DNA of 64,000 nucleotides from a virus (Duplodnaviria > Caudoviricetes): the IMG/VR virus record IMGVR_UViG_3300030098_005649, one strand, 5' to 3'. Under the pieces are notes generated by a model. That model did not search any database. It had not been told where the DNA came from and was given only the letters and a program-made list of their open reading frames with translations. Positions 32,362-56,029 of the stretch are shown in pieces. Positions within the stretch are counted from its first letter, which is position 1; every line of letters starts with the position of its first letter. The translations under genes were made by a program, and so were the position numbers.

Positions 32362-32446
32362 ATTATTTTCAAAAATCGTAAATTATTTTGTGGGTCGGGT
32401 AGACAATCCAAGCGGTACTTATGACAATATGACATATACACGAGTT

Positions 32447-32462
32447 TGGTACGATATTTGAT
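32447..32462 (+). promoter_or_regulatory. Sigma54-type -24/-12 promoter (variant -12)
   Basis: TGGTACGATATTTGAT = GG-N10-GA, 10 nt after a GACAATATGACATA box. Confidence 0.55.
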
Positions 32463-32513
32463 ATGGGCGGTATACTTACAAAAAAATATTTACCGAACTC
32501 TCTACTTATTAGT

Positions 32514-32687
32514 ATGAAGGTAAATCACAACTACTACTATCTATTACAACAGGCTCACCACATAGAGGAGATGTATAACCACTATATGGTACACAACAAC
32601 AAGCCATATTGGTACGAAGAGGACTATCAGCACTTCTTTATCGACCTATGGGTGTACGAGGAGTACCTAAACCTACCAAGTGCCTGA
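32514..32687 (+). CDS. Small Tyr/His-rich orphan
   Basis: 57-aa ORF downstream of the sigma54-like promoter; weak RBS. Confidence 0.4.
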   Translation: MKVNHNYYYLLQQAHHIEEMYNHYMVHNNKPYWYEEDYQHFFIDLWVYEEYLNLPSA

Positions 32688-33022
32688 GTATGACATAATG
32701 ACCTACCCCCATAGCTTTATCGTGAACTCGTAAAGGTATGACATAATGACACGGCTCGGACTCGTTTTCATATCGAGCACAATTTTTTTACCTATAGCTT
32801 TATTACTTTTTTCGTATCACTTCGTGATATATTTTTTATCGAATGTAACTTGTGGTATCCATCGCAGATGGTCAATTGTGTTCATCATCAAATATCGAAA
32901 CTTTTGCTCGTTTTGTGTAGTATAATCTTATATCACATAATATTTATTATTGTATCAATCGTGTGTTCTCACGAGACTTCTCGACATTACATATTAGGTT
33001 TCTTATCATATAAGGAAACGAA

Positions 33023-33367
33023 GTGGAAACGAATTTTATTCAAGAATTGGTAAATGAATACTCTTGGCTATTCTTTACTGGCATACTATTATTATTGTTC
33101 AACAATACTATCTCTGAGGCAGTAGATGGTATTATGTTGTTCTTAGGTAACGACTACAACGAGGACGATGTTGTTGAGGTTGATGGTAGTCCTGGTCGTA
33201 TCATACGAGTAGGGATATGGAAAACAGTATTCTTCATATACCACATAATAGATGGTAAGATTGTTGGCGGTTCTAAACTCGTGGTACAGAACTCTAAACT
33301 AAAGGACTTGAAGATAGAGAAACCCTTACCTAACTTGGATTTATCTAAATATCAGAAACCAAAGTAA
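33023..33367 (+). CDS. MscS-like fragment (one TM plus middle beta-domain)
   Basis: GTG start with AAGGA RBS; TM helix then DDVVEVDGSPGRIIRVGIWKT. Confidence 0.55.
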   Translation: METNFIQELVNEYSWLFFTGILLLLFNNTISEAVDGIMLFLGNDYNEDDVVEVDGSPGRIIRVGIWKTVFFIYHIIDGKIVGGSKLVVQNSKLKDLKIEKPLPNLDLSKYQKPK

Positions 33368-33569
33368 ATGAGATTTATTCACAATATATTATTTTATGAC
33401 CTATCTAATCTATTCAGTATTACTACTAATCGTACACGCATTCTAAGGTGGTTGAACTCTCGACCATCACTCAGATACCGAATCAAACAATATAATAAGA
33501 AACATTAGAATCTAACACATTTCTAACAAAATACCTTAGTTTTTAAAATCACTATTTCATATTTATCAT

Positions 33570-33670
33570 TGGAACCCGAATCGGATTCTATAGTGAGAGC
33601 AACTCATTGTAGAAAAGGATAAAACACCTGCGGTGGTCGGTCATACTATCAAACTAAATAGGAGAATACA
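33570..33670 (+). promoter_or_regulatory. Structured 5' leader of the TonB-CTD gene
   Basis: 10-bp hairpin CTATAGTGAG/CTCATTGTAG (33588-33612) after a TATTTATC motif at 33560. Confidence 0.4.
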
Positions 33671-34009
33671 ATGATAAAGGCAATATTGTGTTTATTACTT
33701 GTGGGCTCCTTGACGGCCCGTAATTACGAGTTTGGTGCTCGTAAAAGTCAAGAACCAATACCTGTGAAGGACTTTCGTTTGGAATACCACGACATTCCTG
33801 ATGGAGTAACTAATCTCATAGGTAAGGTTGTAGCAGTGTTTGACATAGACGAACACGGTAATGTATTAGACGCATATGTTCAAGATACCTTCAACATCCA
33901 ACTAAATCACATAATCGTAGATAAACTAAAACAAACCAAATACCAACCAGCCATACAAAATGGAAGACCTGTGCGAGTAAGGATGACACTCCCTATCGTT
34001 TTCAAATAA
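33671..34009 (+). CDS. Signal peptide plus TonB C-terminal domain
   Basis: GKVVAVFDIDEHGNV...KYQPAIQNGRPVRVRMTLPIVF; no Pro-rich spacer. Confidence 0.75.
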   Translation: MIKAILCLLLVGSLTARNYEFGARKSQEPIPVKDFRLEYHDIPDGVTNLIGKVVAVFDIDEHGNVLDAYVQDTFNIQLNHIIVDKLKQTKYQPAIQNGRPVRVRMTLPIVFK

Positions 34010-34022
34010 ACCATTTTTCAAA

Positions 34023-34044
34023 GAGGGGGGCTATGTCCCCCCTC
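34023..34044. terminator. Strong GC hairpin, probable terminator
   Basis: GAGGGGGG-CTATGT-CCCCCCTC; T-run follows on the minus strand. Confidence 0.55.
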
Positions 34045-34089
34045 GGCGTATTTAACACGAAATAAAATCTTAACTTTTTTTAAAATAAT

Positions 34090-34120
34090 GCTTGACCCGT
34101 ATTGTTTTTCTTTGTATATT
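34090..34120 (+). promoter_or_regulatory. Sigma70-like early promoter
   Basis: GCTTGACC-N17-TATATT. Confidence 0.75.
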
Positions 34121-34164
34121 AGGGTATGATAAATAACCAAATAATAAAGAAAAGGAATAACATT

Positions 34165-53848: not shown

Positions 53849-53857
53849 GAGAAAGTT

Positions 53858-54355
53858 GTGGGTAAAAGACCAGCATCATTTGAGTATAATGGTACGCTCG
53901 TAAAAGTTTTAGATGGAGATACAATCGATTGTTATATCGACTTGGGTTTCGATTTGAAAATAAAAAAACGAATTAGATATATGGGTATAGATACTTGGGA
54001 AAGTAGAACTCGTGATAAAGAAGAAAAAGTCAAAGGACTCGCAGCTAAAGCTCGTAATAAAGAGTTATTAGAGGCTGGTGTTTTCAAGATTGTTTCTTAT
54101 GGAACAGGTAAATTTGGTAGGGTACTTGGAGAAATCTTTGTAGACCCATCAGTAGTTGGTCACGAAGTTTCTGAAAATGTCGATAGAAATAAAGACGGGT
54201 TAGTGAGTATCAATGACATACTTATAGAAGAGGGACATGCCTACGATTACCACGGTGGTAAGAAGAAAGATTTCAAGGCAGAGGCCAAGAAAGAAATTGA
54301 GGCAGAGAAGAAAGGAAAGTCGGCAGACTTAGTAGACAAACCCTCAGAGGAATAA
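53858..54355 (+). CDS. Thermonuclease (SNase-like)
   Basis: VLDGDTI, IRYMGIDTWE, GKFGRVLG, INDILIEEGHA. Confidence 0.88.
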   Translation: MGKRPASFEYNGTLVKVLDGDTIDCYIDLGFDLKIKKRIRYMGIDTWESRTRDKEEKVKGLAAKARNKELLEAGVFKIVSYGTGKFGRVLGEIFVDPSVVGHEVSENVDRNKDGLVSINDILIEEGHAYDYHGGKKKDFKAEAKKEIEAEKKGKSADLVDKPSEE

Positions 54356-54359
54356 TAAT

Positions 54360-54611
54360 TTGGAAAATCAGTTACAAGAATTACTAACAATCACTATGGA
54401 AGAATGTGGAGAGTTGATACAAGCTTGTAGTAAAGCTATAAGATGTGATGACTACCATATGAATGAAAAACTCATTGAAGAGATTGGTGATGTTATGTGT
54501 ATGATTGAATTATTACAGGAATATGATTTAGTCTCTTATCAAGAAATAGATGAGAGAGTAATAGAGAAACGAAACAAACTAAAGAAATGGAGTAATTTAC
54601 TAAATGGATAA
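54360..54611 (+). CDS. MazG-like NTP pyrophosphohydrolase
   Basis: EECGELIQA...EEIGDV. Confidence 0.8.
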   Translation: MENQLQELLTITMEECGELIQACSKAIRCDDYHMNEKLIEEIGDVMCMIELLQEYDLVSYQEIDERVIEKRNKLKKWSNLLNG

Positions 54612-54754
54612 AGTATCACATTTGCTAAAAGGCGACAAGAGGTTGGAAACTGAAACATATGACCAATTCAAAATAAGGCGTAAGGCTGAAAAAATGTTGG
54701 TCAAACAATATCTAAAAGGTAGACCAGTACAGGCTACTAAAAAGGATAATTGAG

Positions 54755-55000
54755 ATGATAAAATATTTTACGGCAGGTTGGTGTGGGCCTTGTCAGGTAT
54801 TCAAACCAGTAATGGAACAATTGAAATCAGAGGGTCACCCAATTCAGATATTAGATGTTGATGCAAATCAACAAGAAGCACAACAATATGGAGTTCGTTC
54901 TGTACCAACTTGTGTAGTGTTGGATTCTAATAACAATATAAAAGAAACATTAGTTGGTGTACAGACTAAGGAAAGGGTATTGGAATCACTAAATGGCTAG
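54755..55000 (+). CDS. Thioredoxin
   Basis: WCGPC, GVRSVPT. Confidence 0.9.
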   Translation: MIKYFTAGWCGPCQVFKPVMEQLKSEGHPIQILDVDANQQEAQQYGVRSVPTCVVLDSNNNIKETLVGVQTKERVLESLNG

Positions 55001-55265
55001 AGCAAAAGGTATTATAGATACACGACCACAAAAGAAACGAAAGAAGACTCGTCAAGGAAATGGTCGTGGAACTAAATTCAGTACTCGGAATTCAAAACGA
55101 TTCAAGAAAAAATATAGAGGTCAAGGTAAATGTTAGATTTTATTGCACAAATAATTGTATTCAATTGGATACCACTTTCACTAATGGTAATTGGATGTTG
55201 GATATTTTTGGAATTTGTAAAGTACGAACATAAAAGATTGAATAATAAATAAAATAAAATAGGTT

Positions 55266-55586
55266 ATGATAGCAGAATATTTTTTGATGGGTGTTCTCGC
55301 ACCATCATTTTTAAATTTGGTTCATTTGGTAATGAATCTTTACATAGTTGTAGCAAGAGGTAACATACTTAGTTTAGGATTTAGTGGAATAAGTTTTCTA
55401 ACCAAATCAATTGGTATGATATTCTTTACTTGGTTAGGTATAGAAATAATTGGATTAGATTATAGAATCTATGTTCCGATACTTACATTCGTTTGGTTCT
55501 TTTCTCATCTATGTGAAGCATTTGTGATACAACATTATATGGAAAAAAATGTACCGAAGTGGTTACAAGATTTACAAATAAAATAG
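55266..55586 (+). CDS. Multi-TM membrane protein
   Basis: Hydrophobic helices throughout. Confidence 0.55.
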   Translation: MIAEYFLMGVLAPSFLNLVHLVMNLYIVVARGNILSLGFSGISFLTKSIGMIFFTWLGIEIIGLDYRIYVPILTFVWFFSHLCEAFVIQHYMEKNVPKWLQDLQIK

Positions 55587-55795
55587 GAGAAAGTTATGGT
55601 AGAAGTATTAACAATAGGTGGAACTGTTGTATTTGCTTTTTATTTAGTATACGCTTTATATTATAATGAATATAAAGATTTTTTTGAATAAGGATAAACT
55701 GATGAAAGAAGTATTAGAATGTTATAAAATTATAGTACCTTATGCAACTGAAACAACATCAGTAACAGCAAAATATTATTGTTGGGAATTAGATT

Positions 55796-55969
55796 ATGAG
55801 GTATAAATTAATTACAGATTATACAACAATTGATGGTACATTGTATAGTGGTGACTTAGTTACTGAAGAAGTTAGTAACACAAAAGATGAATCTAAAATT
55901 AGGGTAAAGGATGCTATGGGTCGTATATGGTTTGTACCTAAAAAAATTTTGAAGGTTTTTAAGATTTGA
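55796..55969 (+). CDS. Small SH3-like protein (57 aa, not in ORF track)
   Basis: MRYKLITDYTTIDGTLYSGDLV...IRVKDAMGRIWFVP. Confidence 0.45.
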   Translation: MRYKLITDYTTIDGTLYSGDLVTEEVSNTKDESKIRVKDAMGRIWFVPKKILKVFKI

Positions 55970-55973
55970 CATA

Positions 55974-55981
55974 TATTTATA
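55974..55981 (+). promoter_or_regulatory. TATTTATA motif, putative late promoter
   Basis: Intergenic, upstream of hsp20. Confidence 0.4.
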
Positions 55982-55987
55982 TAATGA

Positions 55988-56029
55988 AAGACAATATGAC
56001 ATACGCACAAAAGTGGTATAGATATTGTA
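55988..56029 (+). promoter_or_regulatory. GACAATATGACATA box plus sigma54-type promoter of hsp20
   Basis: AAGACAATATGACATA-N10-TGGTATAGATATTGTA (GG-N10-GT); same spacing as 32421-32462. Confidence 0.65.

Follow-up and report, generated by a model that had tools for sequence, protein, structure and literature searches.

Does a phage that encodes no sigma-54 factor carry promoters for the sigma-54 machinery of its host? The question is raised by a 64-kb stretch of viral DNA (IMG/VR record IMGVR_UViG_3300030098_005649, Caudoviricetes; hereafter the window, all coordinates being positions in the whole stretch) in which three intergenic sites share the motif TGGTAY-N5-TTG with exact GG-N10-G spacing. 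The original prediction had read these sites as a regulon plugged into the enhancer-dependent signalling of the host, and all three are found where it placed them, with core sequences TGGTACgatatTTGA at 32447, TGGTACagtttTTGT at 43667 and TGGTATagataTTGT at 56014. We consider it likely that host RNA polymerase carrying RpoN reads sites 2 and 3, and probably also site 1, as promoters of the sigma-54 type, and that a palindrome next to two of them marks a promoter of the host's heat-shock type. The elements in question are the following.

32422 to 32434, plus strand: palindrome TGACAATATGACA (TGNCA-N3-TGNCA), a putative enhancer or activator site, 12 nt 5' of the -24 element of site 1.
32447 to 32461, plus strand: core of site 1, TGGTAC-N5-TTGA, of the -24/-12 type; predicted transcription start (+1) near 32473.
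43667 to 43692, plus strand: core of site 2, TGGTAC-N5-TTGTAC, then TATATAAGTA; predicted +1 near 43693.
43720 to 46785, plus strand: operon behind site 2, encoding a 216-aa protein, three N_methyl pilins (44413, 44855 and 45333) and two more genes.
55989 to 56001, plus strand: near-palindrome AGACAATATGACA, 12 nt 5' of the -24 element of site 3.
56014 to 56029, plus strand: core of site 3, TGGTAT-N5-TTGTA; predicted +1 near 56040.
56066 to 56572, plus strand: hsp20, with a probable TTG start at 56066 after AGGAGG.

The annotation of the Hsp20 gene behind site 3 and of the N_methyl pilins behind site 2 was confirmed, and no convincing open reading frame (ORF) lies 3' of site 1, which would produce an orphan transcript. 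All three sites carry GG at -25/-24 (TGGTAC, TGGTAC and TGGTAT at sites 1, 2 and 3), and five nucleotides separate TGGNAN from TTG here and in every conserved copy. The base at -12 is A, T and T, respectively, the canonical C being absent. The identical box that had been claimed at equal spacing for two sites is also present: the 14-mer GACAATATGACATA occurs exactly at 32423 and 55990 and contains a 13-bp palindrome, TGNCA-N3-TGNCA, which ends exactly 12 nt 5' of TGG at both. Strict copies of this palindrome number three in the window, where 0.53 would be expected; all lie within 32280 to 32751, and near copies are found at 32690 and 55989. TGGTAY-N5-TTG itself occurs six times against 1.78 expected, a count reached in 1 of 100 shuffles, and only the three sites above are both intergenic and gene-facing. 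The core is too short to reach significance in one window, so the case for its reality rests on conservation in relatives and on the composite match of palindrome plus core.

Firstly, we examined this conservation in 80 loci with Hsp20 orthologues (64-99% identity; cores counted over 64 relatives) and in 45 loci carrying the first gene of the pilin operon (cores counted over 33 distinct upstream regions). A TGGYAY-N5-TT(G/T) core precedes hsp20 in 23 of the 64 relatives, and the palindrome stands at exactly 12 nt in 16 of these 23. At the pilin operon, TTTGGTAY-N5-TTGTA followed by TATATAGGTA is present in 29 of the 33 regions, with T at -12 in 27 of the 29; the exceptions are a canonical TGGCAT-N5-TTGCA (L092), one TGGCAT-N5-TTTCA and two regions with AG for GG. 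The background of the core elsewhere in the same phage loci is 0.05-0.07 per 200 nt. Counting GG over phage and host copies would be circular, because the search pattern itself demands TGG; when full upstream regions were read by eye, the two AG pilin promoters were the only exceptions. The extended core TGGWAC-agttw-TTGTACTATATA is found both at the pilin site of the window and at hsp20 in further phages, for example L034; since this core of about 24 nt is near-identical to L034-type hsp20 cores, the two promoter sets appear to be of one kind. The heat-shock palindrome was found 5' of the pilin promoter in none of 32 upstream regions, so that this promoter may use another activator or be partly activator-independent. 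This sequence comparison identifies site 2 and site 3 as regulatory elements under conservation, with less support for site 1.

Secondly, the phage appears to supply neither regulator. No Sigma54_DBD or Sigma70_r2 domain was found in G001 to G004, which include the nearest record (G001, a 109-kb IMG/VR contig) and a complete 216-kb relative (G002). A GAFTGA activator was likewise absent from the phage; a phage-encoded sigma-54, sigma-70 or activator was rejected as a candidate, the sole weak PF00158 match being a MoxR/CobS-like AAA protein that lacks GAFTGA. The absence of both regulators, first claimed for the window, thus extends to G001 and to the complete G002. A genome-wide scan for motif and regulators, which the prediction had proposed, gave few copies of the motif per phage genome: the composite pattern has one match across five large relatives and the core two in G001. 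These counts point to a small regulon and to no temporal class, and the composite pattern was dropped as a genome-wide promoter class for having too few matches in relatives.

Thirdly, the same architecture stands on bacterial chromosomes. Species-representative genomes were scanned with the major pilin, which led to G007, a 1.9-Mb marine metagenome-assembled genome (MAG) of about 34% GC, like the phage, whose 2.7-kb contig carries a pilin 75% identical to that of the phage. G007 and 30 relatives (24-62% GC, 1.1-3.4 Mb; L204-L274) form the set of 31 lineage genomes used below. In G007, TGGYAY-N5-TTGYW has 43 matches against 19 for the reversed control; only 4 are intergenic, and all four face a gene, namely hsp20, groES, a pilin and a secreted protein. 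Its hsp20 has TGGTAC-N5-TTGTA with two palindromes 21 bp apart upstream, and its groES has the canonical TGGCAT-N5-TTGCA with a palindrome 13 nt upstream; the contigs of both are ordinary chromosome (malic enzyme, PFK, 2-oxoacid:ferredoxin oxidoreductase, Cpn10). Distinct upstream regions from across the lineage carry the core at hsp20 in 26 of 28 cases and at groES in 24 of 29; among these 24 groES sites, 22 also have the palindrome, 11-13 nt 5' of the core. A hidden Markov model (HMM) built from 24 bacterial groES promoter regions alone and run over both strands of the window ranks site 1 best (E 3.9e-4), site 3 second (E 4.1e-3) and site 2 fifth, on its core alone; a core-only HMM built from host hsp20 promoters fails to discriminate within the window.

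The lineage also has the machinery. The rpoN gene of G007 is complete (AID, CBD and DBD), and rpoN was found in 27 of the 31 genomes, which bears on the condition that a host lacking it would refute the idea. G007 has one true enhancer-binding protein, of 408 aa, with AAA+ from residue 14, ESELFGH...GSFTGA, a linker of about 95 residues, HTH_8 and no receiver domain; 30 of the 31 genomes have a full-length orthologue (58-95% identity), and in 19 of the 31 the activator query has no other match at E <= 1e-30. When the promoters of the candidate lineage were compared with the window, they read TGGYAY-N5-TTG(C/T/A), with the same core and palindrome. At -12 they have C 14, T 7 and A 4 times at hsp20 and T 17, A 4 and C 3 times at groES. 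The non-canonical GA, GT and GT of the three sites thus stand as predicted, but not as a phage peculiarity: since the -12 elements of the lineage vary among GC, GT and GA, GT or GA is normal there. Sigma-54, the single receiver-less activator and TGNCA-N3-TGNCA appear to constitute the heat-shock regulon of this streamlined marine lineage, which is the probable host of the phage. C-terminal domains of the type IX secretion system (T9SS) number 36-63 per genome in G007 and its relatives, and one occurs in a phage relative; both fit a host of FCB type. The phage domain is a T9SS C-terminal sorting domain (36 bits) in a 307-aa ORF of L275 (G003:C1:98494-98646), a clue to host range. We dropped any phylum name for the lineage, as the RpoN and KorA atlas matches are inconsistent and the genes have Shine-Dalgarno sites despite T9SS. 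SAR11 was also rejected as host: nothing ties the phage to it, and rpoN is missing from the annotation of a freshwater SAR11 genome (PMC12113158).

We infer from these comparisons that host RNA polymerase with host RpoN would read sites 2, 3 and probably 1 as -24/-12 promoters, and that TGNCA-N3-TGNCA, 12 nt upstream at sites 1 and 3, would most likely be the site of the lineage's single receiver-less enhancer-binding protein. As the phage encodes neither factor, phage hsp20 would respond to the host's own proteotoxic-stress signal. The pilin operon would have the same core promoter with the palindrome absent. The claim that the phage plugs into host enhancer-dependent signalling is thus backed by conservation in phages and by the architecture of host hsp20 and groES; the pilin site has no heat-shock palindrome.

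RNA evidence came from assembled RNA contigs, which cannot fix 5' ends; for this reason their starts are no more than supportive. In three marine/aquatic metatranscriptomes, contig depth is 0-0.9 over 43004 to 43670 and 58, 41 and 12 over 43671 to 44337; it falls along the pilin operon after site 2, and neighbouring genes are at about 0-4. In these three data sets no other part of 37-57 kb comes close to the coverage of the pilin operon (43720 to 46300). RNA contigs start at 43734 and 43764, 3' of site 2 (predicted +1 at 43693). At hsp20, a contig of 1009 nt starts at 56044, 4 nt past the predicted +1 at 56040, and another at 56070.

Several observations weigh against this reading. The near-invariant C at -12 is missing from all three window sites; experimentally validated promoters with a non-consensus -12 exist (PMC12316311). 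The core alone is non-significant in the window (core-only profile, E >= 1), and AG replaces GG in the two pilin promoters noted above. The TATATAGGTA block conserved 3' of -12 in phage promoters is not known as a feature of sigma-54 promoters, and the host promoters do not have it. Conservation of site 1 is weak: no clear gene follows it, and its -24/-12 is absent from G002. The phage is linked to the host only indirectly, by a binned contig of 2.7 kb, a similar GC content, cis-elements in common and one T9SS domain, and phage Hsp20 is only 34% identical to that of G007. Transcription starts cannot be fixed from RNA contigs. Finally, the centre of the palindrome falls at about -45. Textbook enhancers lie at about -80 to -150, and a palindrome so much closer could be a repressor operator.

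On that alternative, the promoters would still be of the sigma-54 type, but the palindrome would be the operator of a heat-shock repressor (CIRCE/HrcA- or HAIR/HspR-like) and the activator would act without a nearby site. A distance of 11-13 nt from -24, at host groES as at phage hsp20, is typical of operators; three higher-GC relatives of G007 have CIRCE at groES instead, as if negative systems had been swapped; and the pilin promoters function without the palindrome. Host hsp20 palindromes, however, lie further upstream in 2-3 copies about 21 bp apart, as enhancers would, 19 of the 31 genomes have no second match to the activator query, the activator keeps an HTH_8 domain, and one activator with one recurring site is the simplest pairing. 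We give the operator a small but real chance of being the right explanation.

The frequent loss of C at -12 also bears on whether sigma-54 is involved at all. The motif could be read by a host alternative sigma of the sigma-70 family (ECF- or sigma-32-like) together with a palindrome-binding factor, its likeness to -24/-12 being coincidental: four sigma genes of ECF size and a sigma of 323 aa are encoded in G007, and phage copies have a TATATA-like block 11 nt after TGGYAY. This we regard as improbable. The conserved blocks are 11 bp apart centre to centre, against a spacer of 16-18 nt in the sigma-70 family; many host copies are a perfect TGGCAY-N5-TTGCA, and the TATATA block is absent from host promoters; the motif co-occurs with rpoN and one activator across the lineage; and sigma-54 control of chaperones has already been predicted in Bacteroidota (PMC12316311). 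The same A/T-rich block, which in many copies from phages reads TATAYW and follows TGGYAY at a distance of exactly 11 nt, would also suit phage 'middle' promoters that work through a phage-encoded factor of the T4 MotA/AsiA kind, with TGGTAY as the -30 box and TATATA as the -10. Distinct early (TTGACT-N17-TATATT) and late-like (ATATTTATA) promoter classes in the phage would leave room for such a class, but palindrome plus core precedes chromosomal hsp20 and groES in more than 25 bacterial genomes without phage context, and 2-3 copies per phage genome are too few for a temporal class, which makes this account very improbable.

Ordinary promoters were considered as well, since starts at sigma-70 promoters had been named as a refutation. 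No sigma-70-like promoter (TTGACA/TATAAT-like hexamers 16-18 nt apart) was found on the plus strand from 43538 to 43720, so none precedes the pilin ATG; 5' of site 3, a sigma-70-like or late-type promoter is present. An extended -10 at site 3 was rejected, because TATAAT abuts TTG with no base in between and a corresponding hexamer is lacking at sites 1 and 2. When the aligned sites were inspected by eye, the spacings of Bacteroidetes TAnnTTTG, NtcA GTA-N8-TAC, the Pho box (11-bp period) and the sigma-32 consensus did not fit.

Upstream of hsp20 the sigma-54-type promoter would thus have company, and two further features are found there.

55949 to 55985, plus strand: second promoter zone, sigma-70-like TTGAAG-17-TATATT overlapping ATATTTATA.
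56040 to 56063, plus strand: hairpin of the hsp20 5' untranslated region (5'-UTR) that buries the Shine-Dalgarno (SD) sequence, -10.1 kcal/mol; its stem covaries among relatives.

The zone at 55949 to 55985 is probably a second, upstream promoter for hsp20. Among relatives, hsp20 upstream regions fall into two types, the majority having a promoter of the ATATTTATA type and one or two hairpins; in the window both arrangements, this promoter and palindrome plus core, stand in tandem. Two RNA contigs, one that starts at 56009 and another that covers 55873 to 56138, begin 5' of the predicted +1 and fit such an upstream start. The hairpin has the stem UUGUAUC/GAUACAA and the loop GCUCACAGGAG; in about 60 relatives (upstream regions of L001-L080) its stem shows compensatory changes while the loop GCUCAnnnGAGG is kept, and many have two hairpins in tandem. 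Judged from this pattern it looks like an RNA thermometer; hsp20 would be under the upstream phage-type promoter and SD-masking RNA in addition to site 3.

Transcription from upstream invites a reading of TGGTAT at site 3 as the 3' arm of a 5'-UTR RNA hairpin with no role as a DNA signal. ATAC...GTAT pairing is possible (-4.6 kcal/mol), and equivalent arms covary in L023 and in L031, where GG is lost. The complementary arm, however, is absent at site 1 and in most class-B relatives, the sequence TGGYAY is itself conserved, with an unvarying 12 nt between it and the palindrome, and host promoters share the DNA element; we hold this reading to be barely credible.

The pilin operon has upstream elements of its own.

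43559 to 43570: dyad TTGTTATAACAA, about 100 nt 5' of site 2, an element distinct from the box of sites 1 and 3.

A dyad about 100 bp 5' of the pilins had been predicted as the activator-like element of this site; it is there, and it differs from the box of the other two. TGTAACA occurs in 25 of 32 and TGTTACA in 22 of 32 pilin upstream regions of relatives, at a position corresponding to that of the window dyad, and the TGTTACA/TGTAACA dyads, 130-250 nt 5' of the pilin promoter with an A/T-rich tract of about 40 nt in between (L085-L129), may be, as far as such recurrence indicates, a second, pilin-specific upstream site. The gene directly before the pilin promoter (43313 to 43537) encodes a PC4 domain, that of a single-stranded-DNA-binding transcriptional coactivator.

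Around site 1 the palindrome recurs in the same non-coding stretch.

32280 to 32292: strict palindrome TGACATATTGTCA.
32690 to 32702 and 32739 to 32751: two palindromes, the first with one mismatch, the second strict, both with homologous copies in G002.

Four palindromes, three of them strict, thus lie within 470 bp of non-coding DNA (32280 to 32751), and homologous copies are found in L082, from the 216-kb relative. Their role may be that of an enhancer cluster acting from a distance or that of a sink for the activator. The sink belongs to a bolder proposal, to which we would grant only a slim chance: that the only enhancer-binding protein of the host is at once borrowed and manipulated by the phage, the cluster diverting it from host chaperone genes, the T at -12 and the A/T-rich block making the pilin and hsp20 promoters partly activator-independent, and the sigma-54 holoenzyme, spared by most phage anti-sigma-70 strategies, being taken over. 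Just before the cluster (31986 to 32270), there is a candidate small RNA: about 240 nt that contain no ORF stand between a strong promoter of the early type, TTGACT-17-TATATT, and a hairpin resembling a terminator. It matches no Rfam family at the gathering threshold.

The phage itself appears to be a large, abundant marine or oceanic jumbo phage. Genes of the window are on the plus strand throughout, at about 33% GC, and its annotation gives phage-like auxiliary content: many glycosyltransferases, sugar-modifying enzymes, RimK, two tRNAs, Hsp20 and the pilins. Its proteins are common in Tara and other marine assemblies, the pilin on 303 contigs of which the longest is 206 kb. Parts of the window are present in six RNA runs, and two non-metagenome runs labelled with one organism (X3 and X14) contain 87-97% of its sequence words. 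No close cultured relative was found, the best being Microcystis phage Mel-JY01, at 55% identity over one AAA protein only. That protein is the MoxR/CobS-like one, which forms a pair with a CobT-like 720-aa protein at 48705 to 52920; the closest phage homologues of the pair are in Mel-JY01 (55%) and in a 484-kb uncultured phage (51%). A near-identical early promoter family, GTGCTTGACT-N17-TATATTA, occurs at 31610, 31986, 34095, 34475 and 34916, and the ATATTTATA motif, probably a phage late-type promoter, recurs just 5' of genes at 4127, 27762, 29590, 46790, 55972 and elsewhere. In G002, two tandem inverted repeats, GAGTAGTAT-N-TACTCAC (L082, about 1640-1700), resemble HAIR-type operators.

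If the sigma-54 reading is right, infection by an abundant jumbo phage of the ocean leaves the sigma-54 holoenzyme and an AAA+ activator in working order, a phage chaperone is expressed on the host's protein-folding stress signal, and a heavily transcribed pilin operon would escape the usual early and late programme. The cis-regulatory fingerprint would also connect a phage family with its host lineage, both of them uncultured; in the host, one orphan activator and one palindrome form a testable pairing.

How does this arrangement compare with known systems? Sigma-54 promoters at GroES, GroEL, IbpA, GrpE, DnaK and DnaJ are predicted, and enriched, in Bacteroidota (PMC12316311); the passages of that study consulted make no mention of the palindrome or of the 11-13-nt spacing. 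The phage resembles these chaperone promoters in having a -24/-12 core 5' of hsp20, as at host hsp20 and groES, and in sharing the lineage's core and palindrome; it differs in that they stand within a phage genome without rpoN or activator and in the added TATATAGGTA.

Type IV pilin promoters that depend on sigma-54 and PilR are known from Pseudomonas aeruginosa and Myxococcus pilA. A sigma-N promoter is described for Neisseria pilE as well (PMC6755734). As in those systems, the phage pilin operon stands behind a GG-N10-G(C/T) promoter with upstream dyads; unlike them, it is phage-borne, no PilR/PilS was identified, -12 is mostly T and the upstream dyad is TGTTACA/TGTAACA, and most small genomes of the candidate lineage have only one activator-query match.

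In E. coli, PspF is a receiver-less activator and ibpB has a sigma-54 promoter. The candidate lineage likewise combines a receiver-less activator (AAA+ plus HTH_8) with a small heat-shock gene under putative sigma-54 control, but its activator, at 408 aa and with the long linker, is unlike PspF. The middle promoters of T4 combine a MotA box with a -10 and act with AsiA; phage copies of our motif resemble them in that a box lies close to -30 and is followed, 11-13 nt further 3', by an A/T-rich block similar to a -10, and, unlike in T4, no phage factor would be needed, since the motif occurs on bacterial chromosomes.

A literature search supported the statement that such wiring is undescribed for phages: no natural phage reliant on enhancer-dependent sigma-54 transcription was found reported, the phage-linked cases being the phage-shock response and one engineered phage. 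The nearest precedent is that of cyanophage auxiliary genes under host regulators, with Pho boxes for PhoB at pstS and NtcA sites, which use sigma-70 promoters and ordinary activators. There too a lytic marine phage places host factor sites before host-like genes and responds to host physiology; here, in contrast, an alternative sigma and an ATP-dependent AAA+ activator would have to stay functional during infection. For sigma-70 systems it is already known that auxiliary genes of phages can be placed under regulators of the host; a sigma-54 version would be new.

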